A stretch of 64,000 nt of DNA from Nemertoderma westbladi (GCA_032718475.1 JAUCBJ010005005.1:1-64000); one strand, 5' to 3'; positions 13,405 through 59,139 are shown, counted from the stretch's first letter. Program-made: numbers and translations. The notes: generated by a model from the letters alone, not told the origin.

Positions 13405-13414
13405 GTAACTAAAA
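13405..13414 (+). promoter_or_regulatory. Element C primer-binding position (GTAACTAAAA): non-tRNA, complementary to its own LTR at 13231-13240
   Basis: gtaactaaaa abuts the LTR end; ttttagttac is at 13231-13240 and 19893-19902. Confidence 0.72.
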
Positions 13415-30361: not shown

Positions 30362-30373
30362 TATATCCGTTAT
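30362..30373 (-). promoter_or_regulatory. Element B primer-binding position (ATAACGGATATA): non-tRNA, complementary to its own LTR at 31099-31110
   Basis: tatatccgttat (30362-30373) is the exact reverse complement of ataacggatata (31099-31110; also 10110-10121). It abuts the LTR and has no TGG. Confidence 0.75.
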
Positions 30374-36021: not shown

Positions 36022-37914
36022 TATTGGAAGAGACAGCAACAATACCTGCAATATCCTACTGTAAAGTTTGTGAATCAAATCATAAATCCGACCTTCTCAC
36101 CAAAACAGTAAACTCTAAGTAAGCGAATATATTGCAGTATCGATCTCTTATAACCGGTGAGGCAGAAAACAGTCTACGAGCAGACAAACTTCGATGAAAC
36201 AAAATCCCGCGCAGCGAATCCTAAAATCAGGCTGACTCACTGACGGACTAAGGGGCTCGTATACTTTGCCGCGGTGTGATTTATATGGTTGGGCGAAAGA
36301 GACGCTAGCTAGGTACAGAGGCAGAGATTTGGAGATGTCTAACTAGCGGGCAAAGCACAGTACGGACAAAAGTTAATTTTATATATTTTGAGGTGTAAAT
36401 AATTTCTAACGCGCGTGTTAATTCTGAACGGTCAAAAGCAGTTTTGCTCCTTCACATATATAATTACTGGGTACGGTGTGCATTTTACGAATATTCTAAT
36501 TTTGTAACTCGTAGGTCCAATACTCACGAATGATAAGGTTCCTTCCCCTCTTGCGTATTTCCAGGACTCAAATTCAGGCATAAGGTTAATGCTACGCCCA
36601 GAATTCGGCAATTTTAGGTACCAGGTCCCTGATACTAAGAAGAGATGTGTTAGTTTACTACTGTAGGCGTACAGTTACTAATAGCTATCCTGGCTCCTAT
36701 CTAGAATTTTAGTCACCCAGGTAGTCCGGGTAACTTCCTATTAGGGCGTTGGCGGGGACACGGTAGATGTTAGTATCCCTAATAGCCTCAATTTATTTGC
36801 GCCTAGCTGTAAACTGCCCTACCGCCTGAACGGTACAATCCCAATTCAGGTGAAAACACAGCAACCCCTCTAGCCTACAAGTTCTAATGCAATGGACACC
36901 GTTGTACTACAAATAGTCGCACACGCACCTGCACTTAGCAAGAGTTAGGCGTACAGTTTGCTGCACCCTACCAATTTGTATGCTTCGTACCAGTGTGCCT
37001 ACGTCCTATCTGCGTACTAGTATCTGCCTGCTCTTTCCCTCTCCCCCCGTAGGAATGTGAAGGTCTACTGTGGGTTTTCCTGAATCAAGACAGTACAGTC
37101 CCTAAGATGTAATTTTAGGCTCACAGCGTGTCACTACTTCTACCTTTTGATCTTTTGGTCTTACACTTAGGTAGCAAGGCGTCGAACGCTGTCTAACCTT
37201 TCAGGCGATGGGTGAATAACTCAAGATGGTATTGCGGGTTGTCTCTTGTCTACATTCCCCCGATGTTCCCGTTCATTGCTGCGGCCCGATCTCTAGCTGG
37301 CCATCCTGTCCCTTAGCTGGGTTCACCGTAGTGAATCATGGTAAAACAGATAGAAAAAAGCAGATTAGCGATAATTCTGACTTTATTACAGAAGATATAA
37401 TTATAATACAATGTAATCTGAAATAAACTAAGCACGACAGAATTAAAGTGATGTGTGTGATAGATATTGAATGAGATAACTAATGAACAAATCGCACCTT
37501 TATATACTAAATTTGTGCCGCAATCAATCGAGAAAATTCTCGATTGTTCTATAGGTTCTAACAGGTTTTTAAAGATAGCTATTGGTCCAGCTAATATATA
37601 ACTTGCACGACATTGGTTACAATCAAATAACTACAGTCTCATTGGTACAGACAAATGCAATTAATTTGTAGCGGTTAATTTAAATGAGTTGAAATTCTGC
37701 ACAAAAATAATTCGCACTTACTAGGATTCGAACTCAATACCTACTACACATATAATTTCCAACGCTCTACCGACTGAGCTACTGAACCACTTGACCAATA
37801 GGCGTATAAATAGAAATAGCAATACAAATGAGGACTCAAAGCAATCTTTACAAAGTTAATTCGAATAAAATAAAATTTTGAAAATCCACGGCATTTAGGG
37901 AATATAATTCTATA
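36022..37914 (-). repeat. Element D 3' LTR (1893 bp)
   Basis: Direct repeat of 55499-57411 with about 4 substitutions and one 20-bp indel by eye. Confidence 0.95.
37716..37788 (-). ncRNA. tRNA-derived / Pol III promoter-like segment in D LTR U3 (second copy at 57213-57285)
   Basis: Minus strand TAGCTCAGTCGGTAGAGCG (A box / D arm) and GAGTTCGAATCC (B box / T arm), followed by a T5 run. No convincing acceptor or anticodon stem. Confidence 0.55.
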
Positions 37915-38648
37915 CCGCTCCATGAAAACAGGATATTATCGTGCATAAAATATACGGTTTTCACCAATAATCAATCAAACTATAGAGTACTTAGGGCGTA
38001 CTTACATATTTACAATTAAATTTCAAACAATACTTCCTTTCTACGTAATGATTCGATACAAAAATAATTACAAATTCAAACTTTACGTATTTAAGGCTTT
38101 ATTAAGTAAGTACAATATAAATCTAAATTAAATTCACCAATATAAATCTATTGCATCTCAATATTGCATAAATTCAAACAATTACAAATATATTGCATCT
38201 CAAATATTGCATAAATTCAAACAATTACAAATACAAATAAATGAAAACAATAAGAAAGGCTCGCGAGTCTTCCATCTACTATTACTTTCTGTTTCACTGT
38301 AAATACTGCCTATAAAATGTAAATTGCATAATATTCGGAACAATATAAATTGCATAAGTTCGGAATAATTACAAATATAAAATATAAATTCTTACAAATA
38401 TAAGTCTTACTAAATATAAGTATAAACTGCATAAGTTTAGAATAATATAAACTCCTTTGCATCTCAAATATGAAACATAAATCTTTCAAATATAAGTTCC
38501 TTCTAAATATAAACTTTCTAAATTTCATAAATTCGGAACAATACAAATTGCTTAAGTTCGGAATAAACACAAATATAAATATAAATTCAAATAAATCACA
38601 AATCATAAGAAAGGCTCACGAGTCTTCCGTCCACCCTTGCCCTCCCTT

Positions 38649-41456
38649 TTATCGCTTAGTGGATCGAGCCCTGCCGCGTCCTCGAAAACTGCGCACAGGT
38701 GACTTTGCTCGCGATATGGGACTCGTGGGGCGAGTCACTGGTTTCGTTTGGACGTTGAGAGACGGTGCGACCATTTCCTCGCAAATTCGTCTATTTGGCA
38801 TCCCAAAACTTCGACCGATTCCTCGTGACCGATCAGTTGTCACTACAGTTGGTAGAACGTCTGGGAACGCGCGAGAAGCGGACGACGCAGACCCAAGAGT
38901 AGCTTGCGCCCCCTGTTGATCAGCTGGTGTATGTCCCGATCCTCCTACTGGTTCTCTAGGAAGCGATACCGTATCCCGAGTAATTCGAATGGTCGGCTCA
39001 ACTCCCTTGCGTTCTTCTACATTAATAATTTTCTTTAATTGTTGGCCCACTTTCTGGACCCGTATGATCCTACCCTGTCCGTCCTCCCGAGGGTGACGTG
39101 CAGACGGCGCAACCGGAGTGGCTGGTATATTTGTCGCCTCTAGGACCTCTTCTTCCTCGAATACGCTCGCTCGTATACGTTTATGGTAAAACGCGGCTCG
39201 GTACGCCCATGCGACGGTTAACCAAGCTCCTTTGTTCCGCTTTTCAGTTCGGAAACGATCGAATTCACCATACGTAATGCGATTAACGACTTTCTGAAAA
39301 TTCCACGTGTTTTTGTTATCCGGGTGAATCTGTAGTAGATACTCGCGCACCACTCGGAATCCGCTGTCGTGGGGCAAAATATCGACAACCTCGATAAGTT
39401 CGTCATATTGGGGCATAGCGGAGATGTATCCTTCCGACATCATCGTTTGGGGATTTACCGCCCAAAATCCAAGATGCGCTCTCATCGGAAACCGTCTTCT
39501 TTGTGCTGATACATGTTCGTCGGCTAAATCTTCCCACTCATCAAATAACTTCCTCACGAGTTTTACAGATTCGTGTTCATAAGGTATATCTCTTAGTTGG
39601 CATTCAGATGCTCGATGTCCTTTTATATTGCAGTAAGTACATTGAGCCATAAATCTCCAGCAAGTATAAAAGGTATGAGACCCTTGATCCCCACACCATC
39701 CACAGATTAGCTGAGTCGTAGTAATGTGCTTTCCACTGCACTTTGTCATATGATGTCCAGCGACGCCACATTTACTACACATCGTATTGGCAGGGTACCA
39801 CACTCGTTCGTATATAAGATCTCCAATCGGTCGAGCGCTTCCTCCCACACTATAATCGTAATCATCTGGGTCTATGGGTTGGTAGGTTTCTGAAGGTTGT
39901 ATACAAACTATAGCATCTGTTGCTTCAAGTTGTCGAATCTCCGTCTGAGATTTCTTCGGGAGGTTCCTTTCTATCTCAAGAAGTTCCTCTAAAGGATCAT
40001 CGGCGATCGTAGTAGTTACTTCGAAATCATCACCAAGGTGACCGATAGGCGCGCGCGTCTGCCGTGATTCTTCCGTAATCTCCACGATACGTTCTCCTTC
40101 ATAGGGTAACAATGTAAACATAGATGGTCTTTCGATAAGAGATCCCGCACAGCGAAGATACACGTCTCGAAATATACTAAATCCTGCTCGAGTAAAGGCA
40201 TTACACTGAGCGTCGGAGTTGTAGAAGGGTTCAAGGAATCGTCTAAACACGTCGGTACGAATTCTCCCTTCCATGTAGAACGTATGATCTTCTCCGAGAC
40301 AAAGTGGATGTCTTTTGAGAGTCCGAGACACAATGTCGGCGATTAGGCAAACATTCACTGACAACTCTATTGCTAAATAATATTGTAGGACCGCTCTTGG
40401 AGGTGACGTAATAGCCCAATACACGCATCCTCTCCATTTAAGCTGTGATTCAAACTCACTCATATCTGGAGTATCACCTTCTCCATAAGTTTCAATATAC
40501 TTGTTTCTCTTATTTTCCTTATAATCCCAATTGAATAACAGGTAGGAAATGTATCCAGTTCCAGTCTTCTGAGTATTATACTCACGAAAATATCCCTGTT
40601 CTATAGACCACAAAATAAGAGGTCGAGTGTCGACGTAAGGTGTCGGTAGTCGGTCATCGCTGTCCGTCATGCCGGCGAAGTCGCTAATTAAATCCTCCCT
40701 TACTCCTGATCCAATCTTTACAACAGTTTTATCTAAAATCATGTTTCTTACCATCTTCGGTAGCATTCTAGCGTCAATATTACAAGCTTGGTCCATCTTC
40801 TTTACTATGTCGGTGATAAGATGGTGTCGCTTTGTATTCGCTGGAGGTATCGGCATTCGTTTGTCGCTCCTCTGTCTACTGAAAACGTGCAGGACTCCGT
40901 CCGCCGCTCTAATTTGTATAGTCTTAGAAGTCAAACTCTTCTGATGACTGCCGCCCTCGTTATCGTAAAACATGTAACCGTTTTCCTGAAACGATCTAAA
41001 TGTCCTATTCCATTCATCCAACAATTCTTCCGAAGGTTGCCAAATCTTCTCTATGTCCTTATCATCTTCGAAACGAATAACCTTACCTCGCCAATCTGCG
41101 GCAATATCTGTATCCGACTCGAAGGTTCCGGTTCCAATCCATAAACGAATCGTCTTGGTTAAATATCCTTTCAAATTACTCGGAGCTATATCGGCACCAG
41201 CTCTATCCAGTTCCTTGAAGTCTTGGATATGAGGTGGGACGTTGTACACGACCTTTTGAGTAATATGTCTACGTAAATCATATATCTTGCTCATATCGCT
41301 GAAAACAACTGCAGGAAGAAACTCCAAGTTCGAAATGATTTCTGGATGATCCACGATGGGTATTTCGTACGTCGTATCCTGTCGGACTGGTATACTAATA
41401 GGGAAATTGAGTGTCGTACTCAATGGTTTCGTAGTTGATGTACTATACGGTTGCAT
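38649..41456 (-). CDS. Element D accessory ORF (935 aa): DEDD-type (RNase D/WRN/EXD-like) 3'-5' exonuclease plus three CCHC zinc knuckles and a basic tail
   Basis: FYDNEG (ExoI DxE), TIQI, LPKMVRNMILDKTVVKIGSGVREDL (ExoII), YVDT, YYLAIE (ExoIII-like). Knuckles CSKCGVAGHHMTKC, CGWCGDQGSHTFYTC, CTYCNIKGHRASEC. Confidence 0.78.
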   Translation of the reverse strand: MQPYSTSTTKPLSTTLNFPISIPVRQDTTYEIPIVDHPEIISNLEFLPAVVFSDMSKIYDLRRHITQKVVYNVPPHIQDFKELDRAGADIAPSNLKGYLTKTIRLWIGTGTFESDTDIAADWRGKVIRFEDDKDIEKIWQPSEELLDEWNRTFRSFQENGYMFYDNEGGSHQKSLTSKTIQIRAADGVLHVFSRQRSDKRMPIPPANTKRHHLITDIVKKMDQACNIDARMLPKMVRNMILDKTVVKIGSGVREDLISDFAGMTDSDDRLPTPYVDTRPLILWSIEQGYFREYNTQKTGTGYISYLLFNWDYKENKRNKYIETYGEGDTPDMSEFESQLKWRGCVYWAITSPPRAVLQYYLAIELSVNVCLIADIVSRTLKRHPLCLGEDHTFYMEGRIRTDVFRRFLEPFYNSDAQCNAFTRAGFSIFRDVYLRCAGSLIERPSMFTLLPYEGERIVEITEESRQTRAPIGHLGDDFEVTTTIADDPLEELLEIERNLPKKSQTEIRQLEATDAIVCIQPSETYQPIDPDDYDYSVGGSARPIGDLIYERVWYPANTMCSKCGVAGHHMTKCSGKHITTTQLICGWCGDQGSHTFYTCWRFMAQCTYCNIKGHRASECQLRDIPYEHESVKLVRKLFDEWEDLADEHVSAQRRRFPMRAHLGFWAVNPQTMMSEGYISAMPQYDELIEVVDILPHDSGFRVVREYLLQIHPDNKNTWNFQKVVNRITYGEFDRFRTEKRNKGAWLTVAWAYRAAFYHKRIRASVFEEEEVLEATNIPATPVAPSARHPREDGQGRIIRVQKVGQQLKKIINVEERKGVEPTIRITRDTVSLPREPVGGSGHTPADQQGAQATLGSASSASRAFPDVLPTVVTTDRSRGIGRSFGMPNRRICEEMVAPSLNVQTKPVTRPTSPISRAKSPVRSFRGRGRARSTKR

Positions 41457-42374
41457 TTATCTTGTCCTCTCCGGGGATGCAATCTGTAGTCTCTGAATAA
41501 CGTTTTGAGCAAAGTTTATGCTCTCGAAAACTTCCGGTGTCATCTCCTTAGCTGGAGTTTGATCGTGTGACGTCCAATGGTAAGGTAGGCTCGCGAGTCT
41601 TCCGCCCCATTCTTCCATCTCACCTTTCTCGAAAGCCTTGTAGGCTCTGTATAGGCTAAGAGCTTCTTTCTTTTCGCGGGTTGACTGATTTGCCTCGTCC
41701 AGCGTAAGTTCAAATACATCGGGTTCAACAACCTTAGGTGGGTAAATGACAGTTTCTCCCGCCTTTGGTCCGGTCATAGCAAATGAATGATATGGATTCG
41801 ATAAAGGATACCCTCCTTCCTGGTAGCGTAGTTGTTGATGGTTCGAACACCTCGCCAATATCGGTTCGGGATTTTCCTTATTCAAATGCATCGGAATCGC
41901 ATTTCGTTGTTCGCGCATACAAGAACCGCATTGATAATAAAGTTTATAAACTGAAAATGCTTCCTTGGTTTCTCTATCGTCCCCTCGAGTTCGTCTGTAA
42001 AGATGCATTCCATCAAATTCATCTCGTACCGCGGGCATAGGTTCGTGCGCCTTCAGGTATTGCATGGTATGATACAAACGACTAATTTCAGTATCGGGGT
42101 CTTCGCTAATGTCTCCCGTATCACACAAAGCGTCGTACGGATAAAGTTCGTTGAAGGTTTGGCGCAAACTTTCGATTCTTTCGTTTAATGCGTTTTGCCT
42201 TCTCTTTAATACGTTCGAGTCATATTTAGTTCTCGCGAGTTTCGCTGTACTTTCCGATAATTCCTTTATACCGAATATAGTATAGTCCTTGGCTCCAAAT
42301 CTTTCGCATGGCGCTGCTGCCTCCTCTTGGATATCATATCCCCATCTCGGCTCTCCTTGTATCCCTTTCTCCAT
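41457..42374 (-). CDS. Element D accessory ORF N-terminal part (305 aa), in frame with 38649-41456 across a single TAA
   Basis: EISRLYHTMQYL...YYQCGSC...RCSNH is homologous to B ELKRLYFTMMYL...YYCDEC...RCAKH. Confidence 0.7.
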   Translation of the reverse strand: MEKGIQGEPRWGYDIQEEAAAPCERFGAKDYTIFGIKELSESTAKLARTKYDSNVLKRRQNALNERIESLRQTFNELYPYDALCDTGDISEDPDTEISRLYHTMQYLKAHEPMPAVRDEFDGMHLYRRTRGDDRETKEAFSVYKLYYQCGSCMREQRNAIPMHLNKENPEPILARCSNHQQLRYQEGGYPLSNPYHSFAMTGPKAGETVIYPPKVVEPDVFELTLDEANQSTREKKEALSLYRAYKAFEKGEMEEWGGRLASLPYHWTSHDQTPAKEMTPEVFESINFAQNVIQRLQIASPERTR

Positions 42375-43033
42375 AATTAGGGGTGTAGTTACATAATCAT
42401 TACTACTAGAGGGAATACAACAGAGTTTGTAGTTAGTTGTGAGGAGACGTGAGAGTTTCGTCTGCCCTTTGGGCTCGACAACGCTCTAACCTCCTACCCA
42501 TAGCCTAAGATCTAGGGTTTCTTTAATGACACGCTGCTTCTTATCTAAAATTTTTGCCGAAATAAAAACGAATTTGGGCTAAACTGGCCGTGAGTCTAAA
42601 ATACTCACCTTTTGATCCCAAACTATTATCAGAAAATAAGCAATCAAGAATTAGTAATAAATATAGGGGAGTCTATTTTGACGTAACTTATTGAAACAAG
42701 ACCGTGTAAAATTTAATTAAAATTTTTAAGAAAGGCTCGCAAGTCTTCCTCTCTTGTTTCTCTAATTTTAAGTTCCACCCGACTGTACCCTGAAATCTAT
42801 TCACTGGAGAAAATTTTAAAATTTTTTCAAATCCAAATGGATTGTCTAAAATTTCGAAAATGTCTCAATATTGTGAGTTCCAAGTAGAATTCCATTTCTT
42901 ATACCTACAAATCCCGCTCCTATGTGACACATAAGGGTACTACCCTCAATGTTCACATATAAAGACAATGGAATTCTACCGCTGTCCTTACTACGGTGTA
43001 CAGGTACGTGGAAATCTATTTGTAAACTCCTAA

Positions 43034-46000
43034 TTATTTACTAGTATTAGGTGGAGATTTGTAGTCTCCAGATTCGTTACGAGTCTCTTCAAGAAGTACG
43101 AGACGTTGAGTCGGTCTGTCTACTGTACGACCGTCAATTGTCCGTACCGTCACAGTTCTTGTCACTCCATCCATAGATGGATGTGTGGCTAAAATTACAC
43201 CTGTTATCCAGAAGCGTCTTTTTAGATTCACTTCTGCCAACAGCACGTGATCTCCCGGCTTTAATGCGCGGGTGTTATTATACCAAGTTGTTCTGGCAGA
43301 AATAGAGGGCAAATAATGGTTTTGCCATATTTCCCAGAATTTGTTAGCTAGTAGTTGCGTGATTTTCCACGCTTTTCTACCGTAGCTGTCGCTTTCTATT
43401 GGAATAGAAATAGGTGTCAAAGTTGTCGGTGCCTGCATAAGCAGGTGTGCCGGTGTCAAAGCGAACTGAGATTGTTTGTCATCGGGTACTAATACTATTG
43501 GTCTAGTATTTAGTATTGCCTCGATTTCAACAAACAGTGTTGTCAGTTGGTCGTCTGTCAATATGTGGTTTACTGGAATGACTTTTGCCATTGCCGTCTT
43601 TATAGATCTAATCAATCTCTCCCAGACTCCGCCTCTCCAAGGACTATCTGGAGGATTGAACTTCCAAACAATCTTGTGAGGTTGCAGTTCGTTCGAGATT
43701 TGATCATGATCTAATTTCTTAAAGGCTCTAGCAATCTCATTTCGAGCACCAACAAAGTTTGTCCCTTGGTCTGAGTACAAGCATTTTACTAGTCCGCGTC
43801 TAGCGATAAATCGCCGCAAGGCTAGTATAAACGCGTTGGTGGAAAGATCCATCACACGTTCAATGTGAACTGCCCTACTGGACATACATGTGAAAATCAG
43901 TCCCCAGCGTTTTACTAGTATACGTCCACGTTTCGTATGTATGGGACCAAAGCAATCAATTCCAGTCTCTGTAAAAGGTGGTCTGAATGCTTGAAGTCGT
44001 GCTTGTGGTAGTTCACTCATTTCTTGGGTACCTATTCTAGAATGTACCTTTTTACAAATAATACACGTACGTGTCACTGAACTTAACGCTTTACTGGGTC
44101 TAATTAATACAAATCTTGTACGTAAGTAGGAAAGACAGTGGTGTCTTCCAGCGTGTTTTAGATGTAAATGTGCATCCAGTATCATTGCACGTTGTAGTTC
44201 GTGATGTTGCGGTATTATTATTGGGTACCTAAAGTTTGTGTTAAAGTCAATGTTTTGAAGCCGAGATTTATGACAAATTAAGTCATTGTAAATAATCGGA
44301 CTCCAACTCAGTATTGGTGACGACTTGATTGGTTGACCTTGATTTATGGACGTGAATTCGCGCGCGAAATATCGCAGTTGGTAATGGCGAATTAATTTAA
44401 TCTCACACCTCTCAATCTCAGTCAATGTAAGTCGACGTGTAAAGTCACGTTTGCCTTTAACGTATTGTACAAAACGTACAATCCACGCTAATTTTCGGCA
44501 AGCGCTTGTCCAAGAGTCTGTTAAGTTTACAATCCGGTCGACGTGAGTATTTGTGACGTCATCAGGTAAGTCAATGGAGATTTTGGAAGGTTTTGAATTA
44601 CTAGAAGGGCCCACGGGTCCGCCGGTAAGTATTCCCTTGTTGACTGTTGATCCTTCCGGGTCTACAAGTAATTTGTCCTTCTTCGTCTTCTTACCTTGAT
44701 TGTCGGTACTTTGTAAGTCGATCGTTAATGGTGGTTTGAACTCTATGGGGTCAGCAGGTTTCGGTAAACTTAATTTGCTGCCAACATTAATCCCAGGTTT
44801 CACCATAGGTTGCAAGTTCGGTATGTCTCTTGAGCGCAAAGTAACACCTGTATTTACATTAGCGTAGGTACTACCCACATCTGTAATACATGAGGTTTCA
44901 CCGTGCTTATGGTTGCTCAAGTGTGTCAAAATTGGTAGTTTGTCAATACAAGGCCGCTCCAATAGGGAAACTGCGGCTTCACTATTTGTCAGTACGTTAC
45001 TAGTGTCTAGTCGACTGTCTAGTAATGTGTCTGGCGATACGTCTGGTAACGTATCTGGTTGTTTGTCAATAGAAGGCCGCTCCAACAGAGAAACTGCGGC
45101 TTTACTGTTTGTCAATGCGTTACTAATGTCTGGTAGAATGTCTGATTGACCGTCTAGTAACGTGTCTGGTTGACCGTCTGGTAACGTGTCTGGTTGACCG
45201 TCTGGCGATATGTCTGGTGTAGAAAGGCTCGCAAGTCTTCCTCTCTTGACCTTTGAAGTTATCGCTTTCCATTTCGCCTTCGGTTTTTTCTTGAGTTTTG
45301 CCGTCGTCGTCTTTTTCTTTGCCTTCCCCTTTTTTGGTTTCTTGATTTCGGCGTCCTTAGGGATGGTGTTAGACTTGTTGTCGTATAACGGTGGCCAATC
45401 TTGCGTCGATTTCTGCAAGAATTGGGGTCCGTGTTGCCAAAATTCTTTGTTCTCCGGTTTACAGAATTCCTCAGACATCATTCCTCGCGACGCAATATCA
45501 GCTGGGTTTTGTGGTCCGGGACAATGTCGCCAATCCTCTTTTATTGAACGGTCTAGAATTTCTGCGCGACGGTTAGCTACGAATGTCTTGAATTCAAGTG
45601 TGTCGTTGTTTATGTAAAATAAAACCAACGTCGCGTCAGTCCAATAAAATATCTGTAAACTTGACTGTAGTTCTGTCTGTATAAGGTTTACGATGGTGGT
45701 TGATAGTGTTGCGGCTTGTAGCTCAGCTCGTGGTGTCGTCATATACTTAGTAGGCATTGTTTTTGCCTTAGAAGTAATGAGCGAAACATCGAATGCTTCT
45801 GAGTCTACTTGTCTGCGCAAGTACGCTGCCACACCAAAACCGTTGTCACTGGCGTCAGAAAAACAGTGTAGTTCCAAGTTGTCAGGAAATGTACTTTGTA
45901 ATGGAAAGTAAACTCTGGGTATGGAATACTCCTCTAGCGAAGATAATTCCGCCTCCCAGGTCTTCCATAAGTCCACTTGGTCTGATGAGATCGGCTCGTC

Positions 46001-49000
46001 CCATGTTAGTCCATCCTTCCAAATACTGCGCATATAAATGCGGGCTTGCAGTATTACTGGACTGATGAATCCTAACGGATCGAACAATCGGCTCAATTTT
46101 GACAAGCATGATCTCTTTGTCAGTGTGTTCTCTTGACTGTCCAGTCTCACCTTCACTCGGAAGTTGTCCGTGTTTGGGTCCCAAAAGAGCCCCAACACCT
46201 TGGTCGTCGGTAGTGGTTCGAACTCTAGGTCTATGTCACCACCTCCATGCTCAGTCGTTCCGAATGAGTCTACTAATTCGGCACTGTTTGAGGCGAATTT
46301 GGTGAGGTTGAAACCTCCGCCCGCCAAGCAGTCCCGTAATTGATGTGCTACTGTTGTAGCACGTTCTACTGTGTCGCAACTCTGTAATCCGTCGTCGACG
46401 TAAAAGTCACGTTCCACAATCCTAATTATCTCTGGGTCATATAGGTGTTTCTGATCTCTAGCGGCTTGTTTTAGGGCGTACATCGTGCAGTTTGGGCTGT
46501 CCCTGGCACCGAAAACGCGAACTTGCATTTGGTAAGTCGTCGGTGGTAGACTTAAGTCTCCTTCCGGGTACCAGAGGAACCGCAAACTGTCTCTGTCTCG
46601 CTCTAACGCTCTCACTTGGTGAAACATCGCTTCAACGTCGCAAGTAAAAGCTACTTGACGCTGACGGAAGCGCATAATCACCCCCATAAGATAATTATTC
46701 ATGTTTGGTCCATCCATCAACTCGCTATTGAGGGACATTCCCTCAAACAGAGCCGCACAGTCGTTGACTACGCGTACTTTGTCTGGTTTGTCGGGGTGTC
46801 TCACGTAGTGATGTGGCAAGTAATACGTCTGGTCAGTCACTCGCTCCGGGTTAGTCATCCGGATAGCGTATCCCTTGGTCAAATACGTCTCCATCTGAGT
46901 GTTGTACTGCAGATGGGCTTTCTCGTCCTTTAATAGACGTTGTCGGATTGAGTGTAGACGTCTTAACGCTAGTGGGTAGTTGTTTATAAGTTTAGGACTT
47001 TGGCTACGCCATAACATCCCCACCTCGTAATGTCCGTCCTCCGTCTGTCGGATAGTATCTTCCATGATCTTCAGAGATTGTTTCTCCTGTTCCGACATAC
47101 AAAGTTCGTAGCTACCAGGTTCAGCTGTATCTTGTTCTAACCACCTGATAGTCTTCTCCGTTAATTCCTTGTCCAGTGCAGCTTGTTCCATTTGATGATT
47201 TCTCAACGCGTCATCATCGATCTCGACGGGCATTGTTGATGTCGTTGGGGTAGGTAGACTCGCAAGCCTTCCGGCGTTATCATCTGTCGTCGATGGAATC
47301 TCTAGCTGACTCGTCTTCTCCCCAAGTTCTAAACTCCGCTGGTGGATTAGCTGCTCCTTGTGACTTATCATACTAGTCACACGTCTGTCACGTTTTGTCG
47401 ACTGTAGTGTAGTATGGTTCACGTCGTGTGAGAAGGAATGAATTGAATTTGTAGTTAATAAACTACATGTACTTTGTACATCGTCTTCCTCGTCACTTAC
47501 GTCTAGTGTGCGCACAGGCGCTCGAGTATACCACCCTATCGGCGTTCTGCAGCCGTATGCGTTTCCCGCTACGACTGCCGATGGTCTGGTTTCCCACCCC
47601 TGATGTAGGTTGAATTGGTCTGTCCCGATCAGCATGGCTACCGATCGATAATTGACAGGACATTCAGGTACACCAAGGTGTCTGAAATACTTACGGTCCT
47701 CCAAGGATTGTTCTGGGACCGGACCTAGTAGGTTACTAAAGTCTTTTGTGGCCGCAAAGGTCAAATCCTTGAAGGGTAACAAAGACCTCTCCCTCTCGCT
47801 GTGTTGCGATTTCGGAAGAAGAGAGTCTAAGTTTAACTTGACTCGTGTCACTGGTATTGCACGCTGTCCGTGCATACTACTTACGGTATAACTGACGCGC
47901 TTACCTTGTCTGAGATCCGTCACGACGTCAGCTATCTTTTCATCCACGTAGCTGTGAGATGAGGCTGAATCTAGAATCGCGTAGATTCTCTTACTCCCCT
48001 TTGTGCCAGTAATCTTAATTGGAATTACACTGAATCCCTTCAGTTGGTCAGTAGTCAGAAGCGCGATCGATGGCTGTTCATCTCCATCCGAATATACGTC
48101 GTCGTCTTCTGACTCTTCGTCCGACGATCCGGATTGTTCTGAGAAGCAATCCTCAATATGGGTCACGAAGGTCGGAGTCGTTTTCGATTCTCGTTTTCTG
48201 TAGGCCGCATCACATCTCGCTGCTGCTTCCGGGTGTTCCCTGGCGAAGCGTTTTGTCGGCGTGTGGCTGTCCGTGTGGAGCAGACCGTCGTGGTTGCGTC
48301 CACAGGATGGACAAGTGTCGGTATTTGGGCAATCTTTACGGACGTGTCCGTGTCGCGTACACCGCCAACAAGAGTCCAATGGCCGTATTTGCAGCCGTCG
48401 TTCTTCCGAGTTCAACTCGCGAAACTGTCGACAACCTCGCAACTTGTGACCGATATACCGCTTGCCTAAATGCTCGCAGTATTGGCAGCCGCTGAAGTCG
48501 GTACTGAGTTGTTGTCTCGTCTGTTTTGTCCCAATGGGCGCAGATACCCTACTACCGTCCGAGAATTGTCGTGATTCCGTCGGTGTGGCGTAAGTGGCCG
48601 TCTTGGTGGATGTTGTCTGAGGTTTTTGTCGGTTGGAGGATGGCAAGGTGATCCCTTCTGCTACGATGTGCTGGTCAGTGTAGTTGGATCGAGTTTCTAC
48701 AACTGCTTCCCTGGATATCAAAAGATACACATCCTCTAATTTTAAGAATCCACCCCGCTCTTCTCGCTGGTATTCGATCTTTCTCCACTCCCGACGAAGT
48801 CGATGGTGGAGTCGTCCTATGATTTTTAATAGGACTGTAGGGGTATTCCCGTAGTCAAGTTGTCCAATGGATCTTAAAGTAGTGATAGCGTTCTTTATCT
48901 CGTCGGCCAGTTTTAATAAGTCGACGGGTTTAGTGATAGCCCCTCCCTTACAGAGTTCCTCTATTACTGACCTGGCCATACTGACTGTACCTCCGTATAT

Positions 49001-50905
49001 CGAAGTTAAACGATCGTACGCTAGTTCGAAGGCGTCCGGTACACCAACGAAGGTCTCTGCCAAACGTTTAGGTTCTCCTGACAACGTTTGAAGCAGGTAA
49101 TTAAACTTCTCCCGTGATGTAAAGGCGCACACGGCGATCTGAGATTCGATATAGTCTACGAATGTGTGCCAGTGTTTTGAACTACCGGAAAACTTCGGTG
49201 GTTGTTGTACCGGCAATCCTTGCCTGGCTGCGAATTTCGCTATCTCCTCGGCAACGTTCAGAGTTTCGCGTCCTTGGTTGGTAACCTGGTTGGTGTTCTC
49301 CCTTCTTGGCGCTTTTCCCTGATACGATGTATGTTTTGAAGGTACCGGTCTTTGTGGTTCCTTCGGGTGTCTATTGTGTTCGAATTCGGAATTTCTCGAA
49401 CTGTCGGTGTAACCTTCCTCCAGACGCTCCTCGATCTGAGCCAACTTGTTAACAACTGGTCGCAGGATGTCGGCGAACTGTTGTGCACTGATTGCGTCCG
49501 TTGGTTGTAACGCCTTCTGTGTTGGTGTATTCTGTGGAGGATTGTCTACAAAGGAGTTATCTGAACGCTCGCGTTTATATTCATCGGCCGCCCCTGTTCT
49601 AAATACCTCGCGTTTCGGGTAATCCGATTCGCTCGAAGTACTACTATCATCTGGATATGGTGGTCGACGTGCTCGCGTCCGTTGCGTCGTACGAATTCTA
49701 ACATTTCGCTTTGGAACATCGTCCACTGATCTCCGTTGTTCGGTAGGCTCACAAGTCTTCCTCGAAGTCGTAGATTGCGATGTAAACTGATTGAACGGTC
49801 GCGTATCCACTGTTCTCCATTGTTCGGTAGGCTCACAAGTCTTCCTCGAAGTCGTAGATTGCGATGTAAACTGATTGAACGGTCGCGTATCCACTGTTCT
49901 CCGTTGTTCGGTAGGCTCACAAGTCTTCCTCGAAGTCGTAGATTGCGATGTAAATTGAACCAGTGGTCGAGTAACAGCGTTTGAATCCAAAGGCCTTGTT
50001 GGCCTAAACGTCATTGGGTAAGCATAGTGTGTAACAGGTTTTGGCGTCAGAGGTGGACTCACCTGTTTTGTCGTCAGTAGTGCAGGTCCGACTAATAAAC
50101 TACTACGATCTGTAATCGGCGGGTTACTTACCTTTGGAATAGGCGACGACGTTGCTCTTGGCGGTGTAAACTTGTCCGGAATAATAAACCTGTGTTCCGT
50201 CGCACCATGGATAGGAGAAATATCACTACTACCCGCAATCGAAACAGGTTTCTTAGTTGTAACTGGTGCGAACATAGGGGTTACTTGAGGGAATCTTTGA
50301 CATAAGTCCTTTACTAATTGTCGTTCCCGTCCAGGTGCTCCTATCGAACCTTCCTTCATTCGTTCCTGGATTTGGCGATGCCTTACCTCTATCTGGTCCA
50401 AATCATGTCCGTCACGAGATCTCATCGATCGATCACGGGCTAGAAGATCCAGATTTTCCTTGGTTTCGGCTAATTCTCTCGCCCTTTTCTCAAGTTCGAA
50501 ACGAAGTTTAACTTCCTTTTCTCGTTGTTCCGTTTGTTGTTGTTGCGCCTCGAACTCTGCTTGTCGTATCGCTTGTTGGGCTTTTATTTGCCGTGTCTTC
50601 ATCTCGACTCTGGCTTCTGAAACTAACCTTTTTCTTTCTAACTCTGCCGCTGCCGTTTGTCGCTCTAACTCGGCTGCCGCCGTTTGTCGCTCTAACTCGG
50701 CCGCTGCCGCTGCCGCTGCCGTTTGTCGCTCTAACTCGGCTGTTGCCGTTCGTTGCGCTAACTCGGCCGCTGCCGCTTGTTGGGCAATGTCCAACTCTAA
50801 CCTTTCCATTTCGGCCGCTTCGAGTTCGGCTTGTTCCTGCAGATGAGAGATTCTCGCTACATTCGCAACACGTATTTTCTCTTCCTCTACCGCTGTTTGT
50901 ATCAT
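43034..50905 (-). CDS. Element D Gag-Pol polyprotein, BEL/Pao family (2623 aa open; true N-terminus lies upstream and is disrupted)
   Basis: Gag PPKFSGS, knuckle CWRCTRHGHVRKDC, protease AILDSAS, RT YYLPHH...FYVDD, Pao RNase H LHCFSDAS...NPADIASRG, integrase HHCC and GIDCF...YSDQG...VWERL, C-terminal RPTQRLVLL. Confidence 0.95.
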   Translation of the reverse strand: MIQTAVEEEKIRVANVARISHLQEQAELEAAEMERLELDIAQQAAAAELAQRTATAELERQTAAAAAAAELERQTAAAELERQTAAAELERKRLVSEARVEMKTRQIKAQQAIRQAEFEAQQQQTEQREKEVKLRFELEKRARELAETKENLDLLARDRSMRSRDGHDLDQIEVRHRQIQERMKEGSIGAPGRERQLVKDLCQRFPQVTPMFAPVTTKKPVSIAGSSDISPIHGATEHRFIIPDKFTPPRATSSPIPKVSNPPITDRSSLLVGPALLTTKQVSPPLTPKPVTHYAYPMTFRPTRPLDSNAVTRPLVQFTSQSTTSRKTCEPTEQRRTVDTRPFNQFTSQSTTSRKTCEPTEQWRTVDTRPFNQFTSQSTTSRKTCEPTEQRRSVDDVPKRNVRIRTTQRTRARRPPYPDDSSTSSESDYPKREVFRTGAADEYKRERSDNSFVDNPPQNTPTQKALQPTDAISAQQFADILRPVVNKLAQIEERLEEGYTDSSRNSEFEHNRHPKEPQRPVPSKHTSYQGKAPRRENTNQVTNQGRETLNVAEEIAKFAARQGLPVQQPPKFSGSSKHWHTFVDYIESQIAVCAFTSREKFNYLLQTLSGEPKRLAETFVGVPDAFELAYDRLTSIYGGTVSMARSVIEELCKGGAITKPVDLLKLADEIKNAITTLRSIGQLDYGNTPTVLLKIIGRLHHRLRREWRKIEYQREERGGFLKLEDVYLLISREAVVETRSNYTDQHIVAEGITLPSSNRQKPQTTSTKTATYATPTESRQFSDGSRVSAPIGTKQTRQQLSTDFSGCQYCEHLGKRYIGHKLRGCRQFRELNSEERRLQIRPLDSCWRCTRHGHVRKDCPNTDTCPSCGRNHDGLLHTDSHTPTKRFAREHPEAAARCDAAYRKRESKTTPTFVTHIEDCFSEQSGSSDEESEDDDVYSDGDEQPSIALLTTDQLKGFSVIPIKITGTKGSKRIYAILDSASSHSYVDEKIADVVTDLRQGKRVSYTVSSMHGQRAIPVTRVKLNLDSLLPKSQHSERERSLLPFKDLTFAATKDFSNLLGPVPEQSLEDRKYFRHLGVPECPVNYRSVAMLIGTDQFNLHQGWETRPSAVVAGNAYGCRTPIGWYTRAPVRTLDVSDEEDDVQSTCSLLTTNSIHSFSHDVNHTTLQSTKRDRRVTSMISHKEQLIHQRSLELGEKTSQLEIPSTTDDNAGRLASLPTPTTSTMPVEIDDDALRNHQMEQAALDKELTEKTIRWLEQDTAEPGSYELCMSEQEKQSLKIMEDTIRQTEDGHYEVGMLWRSQSPKLINNYPLALRRLHSIRQRLLKDEKAHLQYNTQMETYLTKGYAIRMTNPERVTDQTYYLPHHYVRHPDKPDKVRVVNDCAALFEGMSLNSELMDGPNMNNYLMGVIMRFRQRQVAFTCDVEAMFHQVRALERDRDSLRFLWYPEGDLSLPPTTYQMQVRVFGARDSPNCTMYALKQAARDQKHLYDPEIIRIVERDFYVDDGLQSCDTVERATTVAHQLRDCLAGGGFNLTKFASNSAELVDSFGTTEHGGGDIDLEFEPLPTTKVLGLFWDPNTDNFRVKVRLDSQENTLTKRSCLSKLSRLFDPLGFISPVILQARIYMRSIWKDGLTWDEPISSDQVDLWKTWEAELSSLEEYSIPRVYFPLQSTFPDNLELHCFSDASDNGFGVAAYLRRQVDSEAFDVSLITSKAKTMPTKYMTTPRAELQAATLSTTIVNLIQTELQSSLQIFYWTDATLVLFYINNDTLEFKTFVANRRAEILDRSIKEDWRHCPGPQNPADIASRGMMSEEFCKPENKEFWQHGPQFLQKSTQDWPPLYDNKSNTIPKDAEIKKPKKGKAKKKTTTAKLKKKPKAKWKAITSKVKRGRLASLSTPDISPDGQPDTLPDGQPDTLLDGQSDILPDISNALTNSKAAVSLLERPSIDKQPDTLPDVSPDTLLDSRLDTSNVLTNSEAAVSLLERPCIDKLPILTHLSNHKHGETSCITDVGSTYANVNTGVTLRSRDIPNLQPMVKPGINVGSKLSLPKPADPIEFKPPLTIDLQSTDNQGKKTKKDKLLVDPEGSTVNKGILTGGPVGPSSNSKPSKISIDLPDDVTNTHVDRIVNLTDSWTSACRKLAWIVRFVQYVKGKRDFTRRLTLTEIERCEIKLIRHYQLRYFAREFTSINQGQPIKSSPILSWSPIIYNDLICHKSRLQNIDFNTNFRYPIIIPQHHELQRAMILDAHLHLKHAGRHHCLSYLRTRFVLIRPSKALSSVTRTCIICKKVHSRIGTQEMSELPQARLQAFRPPFTETGIDCFGPIHTKRGRILVKRWGLIFTCMSSRAVHIERVMDLSTNAFILALRRFIARRGLVKCLYSDQGTNFVGARNEIARAFKKLDHDQISNELQPHKIVWKFNPPDSPWRGGVWERLIRSIKTAMAKVIPVNHILTDDQLTTLFVEIEAILNTRPIVLVPDDKQSQFALTPAHLLMQAPTTLTPISIPIESDSYGRKAWKITQLLANKFWEIWQNHYLPSISARTTWYNNTRALKPGDHVLLAEVNLKRRFWITGVILATHPSMDGVTRTVTVRTIDGRTVDRPTQRLVLLEETRNESGDYKSPPNTSK

Positions 50906-50930
50906 TCACTTGTGTCCTTCTGGGCTCCTC

Positions 50931-52096
50931 CCCGAGGCGCACCCACGAGGCGGACACCTTTCCACCACCCTTGGGGCCAGTCCGACAGATGTTATTATCA
51001 GACCGGGCCGGAGGGTGGCCTGATGCTTCCCGGGTTCTGTTTTCGGTCCCCCGATCACACCAGCACAGCTCGTCGAACGTGTAGCCAGATGGGCGGCTAC
51101 TGTCAATTTACTGTGGCCTGACTGTACATTGAGCCAACTCAAAGTATAACAAAGAGTCAACCGGCAGGTGGACCAGTCGATAGCGATCGAGCACCAAGGT
51201 CGCCCTTGGGCCTAACCGACGGTCTTGTCCCAAGCGGGCTTGCGCTACCCAACATTGGAATTTTGACACGTTTTCACCTGCCTCGCCGGCAGTATTGAGG
51301 GGACACCGTTCCTCAACAATACTGACTAGCTCGAAAGCTAGGAACAAGTAACCACTTACCCTTCCTGTACACGTGTACTCAACAGATGTTCACGAATATC
51401 AAGTACACTACGGTAAACACAAAATCTGACACATACCATGCACACACAGAGGACATAATCGGGTAAGACAAAATCGGGGTCAAATCAGAGGGGACAAATT
51501 GTATCGACGAGAACAACAGGAAAGAGTCGAGAGTACTTTATTTTACCGACAGGGTAAAATAACTTTGTGTGCACAAAGTATGCTGGGGTGCAGTAAAGTA
51601 TGGTCCTACTAATACCAGCGGCGTCTTGTCCAACTGGCAAGGGTTCCCATACCCACTCGCAGTGGCCACACATACAATCACGTGTACTCACGTACCCACA
51701 GCAACAGAAAGCTCAAGACCCGACGGTTTATTCCAATGCCACCAAAGACCAATCAGCTGAACATGGAGACAATAACATATAGTATCAAAAAAACGGAACA
51801 GCTGACGGTCAATGGAACCATCCAAGCCCCAAGCAAACTGCCACTGATCGCCCACATACAAAACATAGTTCGCGCCACATGAACCACAAATCACGCCATG
51901 CCACCACCCCTACTGTGTACAGGACTGGCAGTACGGCAACAGGCCGACTAGACGGTACCACGGCACCATGGCAATTCATGGTTCGTTAGACACGAGGGCC
52001 TTCAGTATCTCCCTTGCACTTAAACTCGATTTAACGTGCCCCCAGACCCTCACGAGTCCGCCGCCGCCTGTTACTGCCACCCCTATAGAGACCTCA
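50931..52096. other. Unclassified ~1.17-kb insertion in D gag (possibly a solo LTR)
   Basis: No long ORF; separates gag-like coding pieces. Flanked by cctc at 50927-50930 and 52097-52100; right end ...cctca. Confidence 0.4.
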
Positions 52097-54689: not shown

Positions 54690-55487
54690 TTCGGTAGTTG
54701 TAAGTCAAGTAAAGTGAGTGTCAAAGTATCGAGTTTACCGTATTTATATCTAAACGGTACTAATTACAGTCATATAAAATTAGCCTACCGGCCGATTTTA
54801 TAGCAGATGGATAAAATTAGCCTAAACGGCCAATTTTACAGCAAATAAATGTCACGGAATAAGTATATAATAAAATTAGCCTAGCGGCCAATTTTATAAC
54901 AAATAAATCGGATAACGATATGCGTTATCAAAAGGTAAATTAAATACAATAATACGGACTAATTCAGCAATGAACAAAGAAATCATACGGAATGCATAAA
55001 TACTTGAGACAGTGGAACCCACAATAATTTTAACTAATACGGTAATGCCTAACTTATTTATGCAACTTTTCAAACTCACCCACTCCAATAATTCTCCAGA
55101 AAAACAGATTCCCAGATACAAACCGAACGTGAACCTTTCCGTTTCCAGCGTTGCGGACGAAACGCGATTTTCCCAACCAAAGTTGTTGAGTTATCTATCT
55201 CCCAAACTTGCTAAACACGGTCTTGCTCCCGTTACAGTCTAGAAATGAGTTCTGAATCCTGAAAAAACAAAAGAGTTAGGTTTTACTTTACGAAAATTTT
55301 GTACCGGTACAATATGGTATTTAAACCCTTTTAAACACCGGTATTCAATTCCAAAAATATTTTACGCGCGGTTCAAATCAAATTTTATTTCAAAAAATTA
55401 GCACTTAGCTAATCAAATATAAATTTTTACCTCAAAATACAAAATTTTCAAATAACTTTAGTCCTACCGAACCGTAGTTCAGTAAAA

Positions 55488-55498
55488 CACATTCCTAC
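55488..55498 (-). promoter_or_regulatory. Element D primer-binding position (GTAGGAATGTG): non-tRNA, complementary to its own LTR at 56526-56536
   Basis: cacattcctac (55488-55498) is the exact reverse complement of gtaggaatgtg (56526-56536; also 37049-37059) and abuts the LTR. Confidence 0.75.
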
Positions 55499-57411
55499 TA
55501 TTGGAAGAGACAGCAACAATACCTGCAATATCCTACTGTAAAGTTTGTGAATCAAATCATAAATCCGACCTTCTCACCAAAACAGTAAACTCTAAGTAAG
55601 CGAATATATTGCAGTATCGATCTCTTATAACCGGTGAGGCAGAAAACAGTCTACGAGCAGACAAACTTCGATGAAACAAAATCCCGCGCAGCGAATCCTA
55701 AAATCAGGCTGACTCACTGACGGACTAAGGGGCTCGTATACTTTGCCGCGGTGTGATTTATATGGTTGGGCGAAAGAGACGCTAGCTAGGTACAGAGGCA
55801 GAGATTTGGAGATGTCTAACTAGCGGGCAAAGCACAGTACGGACAAAAGTTAATTTTATATATTTTGAGGTGTAAATAATTTCTAACGCGCGTGTTAATT
55901 CTGAACGGTCAAAAGCAGTTTTGCTCCTTCACATATATAATTACTGGGTACGGTGTGCATTTTACGAATATTCTAATTTTGTAACTCGTAGGTCCAATAC
56001 TCACGAATGATAAGGTTCCTTTCCCTCTTGCGTATTTCCAGGACTCAAATTCAGGCATAAGGTTAATGCTACGCCCAGAATTCGGCAATTTTAGGTACCA
56101 GGTCCCTGATACTAAGAAGAGATGTGTTAGTTTACTACTGTAGGCGTACAGTTACTAATAGCTATCCTGGCTCCTATCTAGAATTTTAGTCACCCAGGTA
56201 GTCCGGGTAACTTCCTATTAGGGCGTTGGCGGGGACACGGTAGATGTTAGTATCCCTAATAGCCTCAATTTATTTGCGCCTAGCTGTAAACTGCCCTACC
56301 GCCTGAACGGTACAATCCCAATTCAGGTGAAAACACAGCAACCCCTCTAGCCTACAAGTTCTAATGCAATGGACACCGTTGTACTACAAATAGTCGCACA
56401 CGCACCTGCACTTAGCAAGAGTTAGGCGTACAGTTTGCTGCACCCTACCAATTTGTATGCTTCGTACCGGTGTGCCTACGTCCTATCTGCGTACTAGTAT
56501 CTGCCTGCTCTTTCCCTCTCCCCCCGTAGGAATGTGAAGGTCTACTGTGGGTTTTCCTGAATCAAGACAGTACAGTCCCTAAGATGTAATTTTAGGCTCA
56601 CAGCGTGTCACTACTTCTACCTTTTGATCTTTTGGTCTTACACTTAGGTAGCAAGGCGTCGAACGCTGTCTAACCTTTCAGGCGATGGGCGAATAACTCA
56701 AGATGGTATTGCGGGTTGTCTCTTGTCTACATTCCCCCGATGTTCCCGTTCATTGCTGCGGCCCGATCTCTAGCTGGCCATCCTGTCCCTTAGCTGGGTT
56801 CACCGTAGTGAATCATGGTAAAACAGATAGCTAAACTGGCTAAAACAGATAAAAAAGCAGATTAGCGATAATTCTGACTTTATTACAGAAGATATAATTA
56901 TAATACAATGTAATCTGAAATAAACTAAGCACGACAGAATTAAAGTGATGTGTGTGATAGATATTGAATGAGATAACTAATGAACAAATCGCACCTTTAT
57001 ATACTAAATTTGTGCCGCAATCAATCGAGAAAATTCTCGATTGTTCTATAGGTTCTAACAGGTTTTTAAAGATAGCTATTGGTCCAGCTAATATATAACT
57101 TGCACGACATTGGTTACAATCAAATAACTACAGTCTCATTGGTACAGACAAATGCAATTAATTTGTAGCGGTTAATTTAAATGAGTTGAAATTCTGCACA
57201 AAAATAATTCGCACTTACTAGGATTCGAACTCAATACCTACTACACATATAATTACCAACGCTCTACCGACTGAGCTACTGAACCACTTGACCAATAGGC
57301 GTATAAATAGAAATAGCAATACAAATGAGGACTCAAAGCAATCTTTACAAAGTTAATTCGAATAAAATAAAATTTTGAAAATCCACGGCATTTAGGGAAT
57401 ATAATTCTATA
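55499..57411 (-). repeat. Element D 5' LTR (1913 bp)
   Basis: Direct repeat of 36022-37914. Three minus-strand CCAAT boxes (~57078-57143) and TATATAAAG at ~57000. Confidence 0.95.
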
Positions 57412-57416
57412 GACCA

Positions 57417-59113: not shown

Positions 59114-59139
59114 CTAGAGTATATCTACAGTTCTATAAA

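Follow-up and report, generated by a model that had tools for sequence, protein, structure and literature searches.

Element D, which occupies positions 36022-57411 on the minus strand of the window (the whole 64-kb stretch of DNA analysed), is a young BEL/Pao LTR retrotransposon of 21.4 kb. We lean towards reading D as a giant element that is likely self-primed in the manner of Tf1, with a primer cut by RNase H and with its third open reading frame (ORF3) as a selected accessory gene of DEDDy-CCHC type. The evidence comes from the architecture of D, from pairing between its primer binding site (PBS) and its own LTR, and from the relationships of the ORF3 protein.

The ends of D were compared with each other by BLAST. 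The 5' LTR (55499..57411, minus strand) is 1913 nt long with terminal TAT...ATA, and the 3' LTR (36022..37914, minus strand) is 1893 nt long; the pair are 4 mismatches and one 20-nt gap apart. A 5-bp target duplication, GACCA, flanks the element at 36017-36021 and 57412-57416. Gag-pol, identified by Pfam and by motifs, is a single open frame of 2623 aa (43034..50905, minus strand) and matched Peptidase_A17 (1.9e-42), DUF5641 (3.3e-20), DUF1759 (8.3e-11) and Integrase_H2C2 (2e-4). DUF1759 and a CCHC motif make up the Gag part. The pol motifs follow in the order protease (DSAS, 979), reverse transcriptase (RT; YVDD, 1501), RNase H (1684-1803) and integrase (HHCC 2248, D 2317, D 2379), and the acidic motifs of RNase H are present (D1684, E1728, D1757, D1803). 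By its LTRs, target duplication and Pao-type gag-pol, D is a member of BEL/Pao (Belpaoviridae).

Two extra ORFs lie downstream of pol. ORF2 (41457..42485, minus strand; 342 codons stop to stop, first ATG at 42374) matched no known family and is ~30% identical to the corresponding ORF of a second element in the window, B. The TAA stop of ORF2 abuts the ATG of ORF3 (38649..41456, minus strand). The 935 aa of ORF3 open with an N-terminal region and a DEDDy-like exonuclease domain; three CCHC knuckles come next, ahead of a conserved C-terminal region and a basic tail.

Element B (LTRs at 9385-10553 and 30374-31541) is devoid of pol and has kept ORF3, in broken form. An exonuclease-like domain with knuckles remains at 11172..12876 (minus strand) in two frames (12178-12876 and 11172-12371), separated from the N-terminal part (20062-22119) by the insertion of a third element, C. 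The LTRs of C are at 12875-13404 and 19537-20066, with a TTAAA target duplication.

The original prediction had placed a self-complementary PBS in each of D, B and C and a further copy of the primer segment in each 3' LTR. Exact complements of 11, 12 and 10 nt, respectively, were recovered at the predicted coordinates, as were the 3' LTR copies. In D, the putative PBS (sense GTAGGAATGTG; 55488..55498, minus strand) runs onward from the first base after the 5' LTR. Over its full 11 nt it is exactly complementary to the LTR sense word CACATTCCTAC, the putative self-primer, which is at sense position 876-886 of the 5' LTR (56526..56536, minus strand) and again in the 3' LTR (37049..37059, minus strand). 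The purine run GGGGGGAGAGGGAAAGAG directly follows the word in the 5' LTR. The 12-nt putative PBS of B (sense ATAACGGATATA; 30362..30373, minus strand) is complementary to 10110-10121 and 31099-31110, and its match to the LTR extends to 22/27. The 10-nt putative PBS of C (GTAACTAAAA; 13405..13414, plus strand) is complementary to 13231-13240 and 19893-19902. The pairing is thus made by three different sequences, and each word is limited within the window to its three expected places. Among 2000 shuffles of each LTR, a match of the observed length arose 13 times for D, 3 times for B and 7 times for C.

The target duplication of C sets the end of its LTR at ...CACA (13404/20066), so that all three matches begin at the first post-LTR base. 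None of the three PBSs has the initial TGG expected where a tRNA 3' end binds, and ARAGORN returned no tRNA gene in the window. We infer that the PBS-LTR pairing serves priming; as the PBS of D pairs with a word of its own LTR, priming by its own RNA is likely. Reverse transcription of D would then start from its own LTR RNA paired with the PBS, as in Tf1, and minus-strand DNA would be joined to ...CACAUUCCUAC.

The same pairing might instead be a long-range RNA switch acting in packaging, dimerisation or translation control, with some host RNA as the primer. The minimum-free-energy folds of the C and B leaders are consistent with such a switch, as word-PBS pairing is absent from both and the word of C has a second possible partner inside U5. 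The start of the complement at the first post-LTR base in 3/3 elements, which is exactly where the 3' end of a primer must sit, argues for priming, as does the lack of a tRNA-type TGG start, and we consider a switch quite unlikely. A second short helix, between bases 5' to the word and bases 3' to the PBS, was weakly above shuffles in the three elements (60, 80 and 45 of 1000). The LTRs of B and of element E could not be aligned around the primer word.

Self-priming of D by its LTR RNA would resemble that of Tf1, Tf2 and Tj1 in the Tf1/sushi group, where the PBS is likewise complementary to the element's own LTR RNA (11 nt in Tf1, 10-12 nt here) and where, as in D, B and C, no tRNA-type PBS is found. 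The pol of D is of Pao type, outside the Ty3/gypsy clade of Tf1/sushi. The words of D, B and C lie 357-876 nt into LTRs of 530-1913 nt, and 164-1027 nt separate them from the PBS. In Tf1/sushi elements the primer word opens the transcript, whereas the original prediction took the segment to be internal to the transcribed LTR. A TATA box with a TCAGT motif is present in C alone, where a start of transcription is predicted 61 nt upstream of the word; near the words of D and B, clear core promoter motifs were not seen.

The original prediction had also assigned the extra ORF to the 3'-5' exonucleases and had described C as lacking it. No exonuclease ORF was found in C, and a DEDDy fold for ORF3 is supported by profile, profile-profile and fold comparison, although Pfam gave no match. 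The exonuclease-like domain of D ORF3 is at 40257..41009 (minus strand). It contains ExoI as FYDNEGG (residues 163-169, 40950-40970, minus strand), ExoII as VKIGSGVREDL (residues 246-256, 40689-40721, minus strand), PYVDTRPL (residues 273-280, minus strand) and ExoIII as QYYLAIELS (residues 358-366, 40359-40385, minus strand), the last being YxxxE rather than YxxxD. The three CCHC zinc knuckles are at residues 560-619 (39600..39779, minus strand; zf-CCHC E=0.019). At E<=10, Pfam returned weak zinc-knuckle matches only for ORF3, and PF01612 was matched by none of D ORF3, the B fragments and two homologues, P0009 and P0010.

These homologues were recovered from 1.84 billion representatives, each on a single ENA contig. 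A word-indexed search of 5.8 billion proteins gave nothing with D ORF3 and P0010 only with the alignment as query. The ESM Atlas gave no usable match for ORF3, and scanning metagenome contigs with P0010 and P0009 singly yielded no relative. D, B, P0009 and P0010 have DxE, K[IAV]GSxxxxD and Yxxx[E/D] in common. ExoI takes the forms YDNEG, YDYEG, VDTES and FDVED across the four sequences; ExoIII is YxxxD in P0009 and YxxxE in D, B and P0010.

The family profile (A2) was compared with 177,635 PDB sequences and gave two matches at E<=10, EXD2 (E=0.029) and WRN exonuclease (E=0.13). Alignment to E. coli RNase D by hhalign gave P=1.2e-4 at a probability of 55%, and a relaxed hhalign alone placed the family Yxxx[E/D] on the YAAAD of RNase D. 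The RNase D relatives gathered for a broader profile were all 86-99% identical enterobacterial proteins, and little was gained. The stretch that aligns to EXD2, WRN exonuclease and RNase D is LPxxV..L.D..I.K.GS....D...P.VDTQ, which includes ExoII. Direct phmmer searches of PDB gave no relevant match to D ORF3 and, with P0009 and P0010 as queries, knuckle matches only, to nucleocapsid and Lin28 chains.

Structural models were compared by Foldseek, which also draws on sequence. The D domain model was unusable (mean pLDDT 37.9), and that of P0009 had a mean of 40.5, with residues 50-160 alone at 54-75, so the fold matches rest on a weak model. With the P0009 model, EXD2 ranked first (E=1.9e-5). 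There were 18 matches at E<=0.001, of which those listed are EXD2, Egalitarian, NrnC and Rrp6; every match listed at any level is a DEDDy-domain protein. A VIA comparison with EXD2 gave Z=10.1 and an rmsd of 4.6 A over 123 residues. Nibbler, EXD1 and polymerase proofreading domains also occur among the fold matches. Together, the profiles and the predicted fold support a DEDDy 3'-5' exonuclease fold for D ORF3 and the B remnant, with EXD2, WRN exonuclease and RNase D as the nearest proteins.

ORF3 shares with these three proteins (PF01612) the order ExoI, ExoII, ExoIII, and they are its best predicted fold matches. It differs in lying below Pfam detection, in being borne by a retrotransposon and in having YxxxE as ExoIII in 3/4 family sequences. 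The inserts between its motifs are also longer, at ~87 and 108 residues, compared with 55-70 residues in RNase D and WRN.

The fold would also suit a catalytically inert RNA-binding adaptor of the Egalitarian/EXD1 kind, with a role in RNA transport or particle assembly. Egalitarian chains ranked high in both searches with the predicted structures, the knuckles are fused to the exonuclease-like domain, and the last acidic residue is E in 3/4 sequences. Inert members of the DEDD fold, however, usually lose acidic residues, and here DxE, the ExoII D and the ExoIII Y with its acidic residue have been kept in 4/4 diverged sequences. We consider an inert adaptor very unlikely, and ORF3 is presumably catalytically active.

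ORF3 shows signs of purifying selection at the sequence level. Compared with contigs from one run (X1), which are of low depth and uncertain kind so that single differences may be errors, 26 codons were changed, 16 synonymously and 10 not, with no indels. Changes fell at codon position 3 in 21/28 cases (binomial P=0.0016 against an expectation of 32%).

Such selection might reflect counter-defence, in which ORF3 would trim or destroy the 3' ends of host piRNA or siRNA, or of their precursors, aimed at the element, a function unrelated to priming. Two small-RNA pathway proteins, Nibbler and EXD1, are among the matches to the predicted fold, and a small-RNA role was raised both in the original prediction and in passages of PMC5408684. 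EXD2 rather than Nibbler is the nearest of these matches, and the same passages of PMC5408684 find a silencing role hard to square with survival of the element; we regard counter-defence as unlikely.

Nidovirus ExoN is a proofreading exonuclease, and by analogy ORF3 might excise mismatched 3' ends for RT and so permit a retroelement of ~21 kb. The length of D and the polymerase proofreading domains among the matches to the modelled fold would suit this idea, as would the DEDDy domains reported from giant Terminons of up to 40 kb (passages of PMC6431247). Part of the length of D, however, is taken up by the extra ORFs and a 4.6-kb leader. The bdelloid Juno and Vesta elements, which have ORFs of this type, are ordinary in size. 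We consider proofreading extremely unlikely.

The remaining question is how the 3'-OH of the D primer would be made. In Tf1, the 3'-OH of the self-primer is produced inside the element's own RNA by RNase H, which cuts between bases 11 and 12 (passages of PMC7175516). The corresponding cut in D would likely be made by its own RNase H, whose motifs are present. ORF3 would work on the 3' ends of element RNA or cDNA without being specific to priming, and it might act at the primer as well.

Alternatively, an LTR-containing RNA, either the 3' end of genomic RNA or a short transcript of the LTR, could anneal to the PBS, and ORF3 could trim the single-stranded 3' tail back to the duplex and so supply the primer 3'-OH. 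The presence of the word in the 3' LTR, the RNA-binding type of the knuckles, the selection on ORF3 and its retention in the pol-less B are all compatible with trimming, as are the predicted DEDDy fold and the conservation of its acidic motifs across four diverged sequences. Processing of the 3' ends of retrotransposon RNAs has already been floated for such ORFs (passages of PMC5408684).

Several observations argue against trimming. No positive link between the exonuclease and the self-primer was found, and Tf1 meets the same need by RNase H. Penelope-like elements (PLEs) are not known to have an LTR or a PBS. DEDDy ORFs are also carried by the Penelope-like Athena/Terminon elements (passages of PMC5408684 and PMC6431247). 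A poly(A)-signal-like hexamer is present <=45 nt upstream of the 3' end of the word in 0/3 elements, so a natural RNA end near the word is not predicted. The word of D is directly followed on its 3' side by RNA able to pair with the end of U5, and this pairing would halt a duplex-sensitive exonuclease early. We consider it quite improbable that ORF3 trims the primer in this way, and give the same small probability to the broader proposal that giant BEL/Pao elements gave up tRNA primers and use their own DEDDy zinc-knuckle exonuclease to trim LTR RNA to the PBS helix. A poly(A) site coinciding with the word, with removal of the tail exposing the primer, was tried as a separate candidate and rejected on the same hexamer count (0/3 elements).

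A DEDDy-type ORF3 is known from the bdelloid Juno/Vesta LTR elements and from the Athena/Terminon Penelope-like elements, according to passages of Rodriguez, Kenefick and Arkhipova 2017 (PMC5408684) and of PMC6431247. As described in PMC5408684, the Juno/Vesta ORF3 resembles that of D in its place after pol, as an additional ORF, and in having a DEDDy domain remotely like that of RNase D and WRN. One acidic residue is altered there also (DEDD to DEED), some of the rotifer proteins have Cys/His motifs, and 3'-end processing is suggested for them. Unlike Juno/Vesta, D belongs to another clade, BEL/Pao, and its ORF3 is likened to the rotifer ORFs by description only. The residue altered here is in ExoIII (YxxxE), and in D the domain shares its ORF with three CCHC knuckles and a conserved C-terminal region, downstream of a partner ORF2.

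To date, bdelloid rotifers are the only described source of retroelement-borne DEDDy exonuclease genes. The BEL/Pao set is a second, very divergent DEDDy exonuclease group from another animal genome. Its ORF3s have nucleocapsid-like knuckles and signs of purifying selection, and they occur alongside a non-tRNA, self-complementary PBS. Judged by titles, the starts of abstracts and passages, the papers listed by literature searches included no BEL/Pao report of an exonuclease ORF or of self-priming. Were the trimming proposal true, D would be the first retroelement in which an encoded 3'-5' exonuclease, and not RNase H or an enzyme of the host, matures the replication primer. A functional tie between the exonuclease and the self-primer would mean a novel route to a reverse-transcription primer; if there is no such tie, D would still be a tractable system in which to study the role of exonucleases in retroelements.

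The span of the original prediction (36022–57411) was found to correspond to exactly one LTR element, D, on the minus strand. Between its LTRs (36022–37914 and 55499–57411) there are 4 mismatches and a single 20-nt gap, and the element is flanked by a 5-bp target duplication, GACCA. All coding in D runs along the minus strand. One uninterrupted frame of 2623 aa (43034–50905) was assigned as gag-pol from Pfam matches of Pao type (Peptidase_A17, 1.9e-42; DUF1759; DUF5641; Integrase_H2C2) and from motifs for protease, RT (YVDD), RNase H (D1684, E1728, D1757, D1803) and integrase, arranged in the customary order. Downstream of gag-pol lie ORF2 (41457–42485, minus strand) and the accessory gene ORF3 (935 aa; 38649–41456, minus strand). 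The ORF3 ATG directly follows the ORF2 TAA in the same frame (41454–41462, AGATAAATGCAA), an arrangement that suggests coupled termination-reinitiation or readthrough. An in-frame TAA is present in element B at 20998–21000, where element E reads Q. Between the D primer site and the gag-pol frame start are 4.6 kb (50906–55487) with short frames only, the longest of 258 aa (53928–54704); this region represents either a leader of great length or an upstream gene that has decayed or gone unrecognised.

The window comprises a nest of LTR elements (9170–36021 and 57412–58149), in which E is interrupted by B and D, and B is interrupted by C. B (9385–31541, minus strand) has LTRs 99.5% alike and lies inside the 3′ LTR of E with the duplication ATCTC. 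It belongs to a family related to D and keeps gag, ORF2 and ORF3, with pol reduced to a 48-residue scrap; B is a recently mobile, non-autonomous derivative in which the accessory genes have been preserved. C, an LTR element of 7.2 kb (12875–20066, plus strand) with the target duplication TTAAA, has inserted into the ORF3 of B and splits it. The two ORFs of C (481 and 813 aa) are low-complexity and arginine/glycine-rich, with one CCHC-like motif near the end of the second; neither gave a Pfam match, and no RT was found in C. E (32460–36021 and 57412–58149) is a third, B-like copy and hosts D in its ORF2/ORF3 region. It is without the exonuclease part, only ~170 nt separating its matches to the N-terminus of B's ORF3 and to the 3′ end of B. 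A tandem array of ~20 copies of a 30-nt unit (58586–59185) lies in E upstream of its ORF2, within a plus-strand open frame (58648–59358).

The complementarity originally reported between the D primer-binding site (PBS) and a word inside the LTR was confirmed. The 11 bases following the 5′ LTR (55488–55498, sense GTAGGAATGTG) are the exact complement of CACATTCCTAC, which occurs at LTR sense position 876 in both LTRs. In B, ATAACGGATATA matches over 12 nt at LTR position 432, and the match extends to 22 of 27 positions. C has its own self-complementary primer site, where GTAACTAAAA matches over 10 nt at LTR position 357. The flanks of C give the target duplication TTAAA if its LTR ends in ...CACA, and because of this LTR end the complement starts at the first base after the LTR in all three elements. 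With some freedom allowed for the match start, the observed match length was reached by 13 of 2000 LTR shuffles for D, 3 of 2000 for B and 7 of 2000 for C. The three words are unrelated to one another in sequence, and no further occurrence of any of them was found in the 64 kb. None of the three primer sites starts with TGG, and ARAGORN gave no tRNA gene in the window. A second short helix (16 nt 5′ of the word against 16 nt 3′ of the PBS) was weakly above shuffles (60, 80 and 45 of 1000). PBS-LTR complementarity of this kind is the self-priming signature of Tf1, whose primer is cut by RNase H (PMC7175516).

C carries a TATA box followed 29 nt further on by a TCAGT motif, and its predicted start lies 61 nt before the word; among D, B and C this combination was found in C alone. 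In the minimum-free-energy fold of the C leader, the word (13231–13240) pairs with a further, similar site at approximately 13355–13365 in U5 (GUGAACUAAA) and not with the primer site, which could represent an alternative conformation. In D, the word is directly followed by a purine run, GGGGGGAGAGGGAAAGAG (56508–56525 and 37031–37048), which resembles a polypurine tract and is able to pair with the final U5 bases. Nothing similar follows the word in B or C.

Neither Pfam nor direct searches of PDB and protein databases gave a match to ORF3. In a complete HMMER search of 1.84 billion representatives, three proteins matched. Two of these, P0009 and P0010, share the whole ORF3 architecture of domain, knuckles and C-terminal region. 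The best-scoring outside match to ORF3, P0008 (326 aa), was rejected as a relative of the exonuclease domain: it matches the knuckle region only and consists of two near-identical halves with CCHC knuckles in each. Alignments of D, two frames of B, P0009 and P0010 kept the motifs DxE (FYDNEGG in D), K[IAV]GSxxxxD and Yxxx[E/D], the last residue being E in D, B and P0010 and D in P0009. Three CCHC knuckles follow the domain, and those of P0009 and P0010 are similar to the knuckles of retroviral nucleocapsid and of Lin28.

Among 177,635 PDB sequences, the trimmed family profile matched only EXD2 (0.029) and the WRN exonuclease domain (0.13) up to E=10, both at the ExoII stretch; these two were also the matches of the untrimmed profile. 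A single, targeted hhalign comparison with E. coli RNase D (P=1.2e-4, probability 55%) covered ExoII and the following P.VDTQ motif, and a relaxed local alignment placed the family Yxxx[E/D] onto RNase D YAAAD. The structure model of the D domain was useless (pLDDT 37.9). That of P0009 was poor as a whole, with a pLDDT of 40.5, rising to 54–75 across residues 50–160. Foldseek with the P0009 model returned 18 PDB chains at E<=0.001, EXD2 first (1.9e-5), Egalitarian, NrnC and Rrp6 being the other matches listed at this level; weaker matches were Nibbler, the apicoplast polymerase exonuclease, trypanosome and E. coli RNase D, EXD1 and WRN. VIA-align of the same model with EXD2 gave Z=10.1 and an rmsd of 4.6 Å over 123 residues. 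Profile, hhalign and model comparisons thus bear out the exonuclease-like character proposed for ORF3: its domain very probably has a DEDDy fold, with putative exonuclease activity.

Selection on ORF3 was assessed in X1, the sole public sequencing run with the ORF3 family, whose contigs are of uncertain kind and mostly <5 in depth. These contigs differed from the ORF3 of D at 28 positions with no indel, and 21 of the 28 differences fell at codon position 3. Synonymous changes made up 16 of the 26 changed codons, against 23–32% expected (binomial P=0.0016), and 5 of the 10 replacements were within the last 55 residues. This one low-depth data set suggests that purifying selection acts on ORF3 among copies.

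The original prediction held that the word, being inside an RNA, needs a precise 3′-OH, and that the ORF3 exonuclease supplies it by trimming LTR RNA to the PBS helix. We regard this route as unlikely. The points in favour are circumstantial: ORF3 shows signs of selection, is retained by the pol-less B and carries RNA-binding knuckles. The need for a 3′-OH is real but not special; in Tf1 it is served by RNase H. The RNase H of D has all four acidic motifs. Pairing of the D purine run with the U5 end would also hinder a duplex-sensitive exonuclease before the PBS helix was reached. A poly(A) site at the word, with tail removal exposing the primer, was rejected separately, no signal-like hexamer being present <=45 nt upstream of the word end in D, B or C.

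Penelope-like elements are not known to carry an LTR or a PBS. According to Rodriguez, Kenefick and Arkhipova (PMC5408684), the LTR retrotransposons Juno and Vesta gained their DEDDy ORF3s in separate events; that paper and PMC6431247 describe the same ORFs as common to Penelope-like Athena elements/Terminons. The authors suggest retrotransposon RNA 3′ end processing for DEDDy ORF3s and leave the function open (PMC5408684). The ORF3 of D would be the same kind of exonuclease ORF as in Juno, Vesta and Athena. Since such ORFs are shared by LTR retrotransposons and Penelope-like elements, genes of this type are not bound to self-priming from an LTR; this leans against primer trimming by ORF3. The inferred link between exonuclease and primer is improbable.

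The best reading is a Tf1-like self-primer that would be cut by RNase H, with an accessory DEDDy/knuckle protein alongside, of a kind known from rotifer retroelements. Candidate substrates of ORF3 would be the 3′ ends of element RNA or cDNA, or host small RNAs, or none if the protein is inert. Literature searches found nothing on a DEDDy ORF or self-priming in BEL/Pao.
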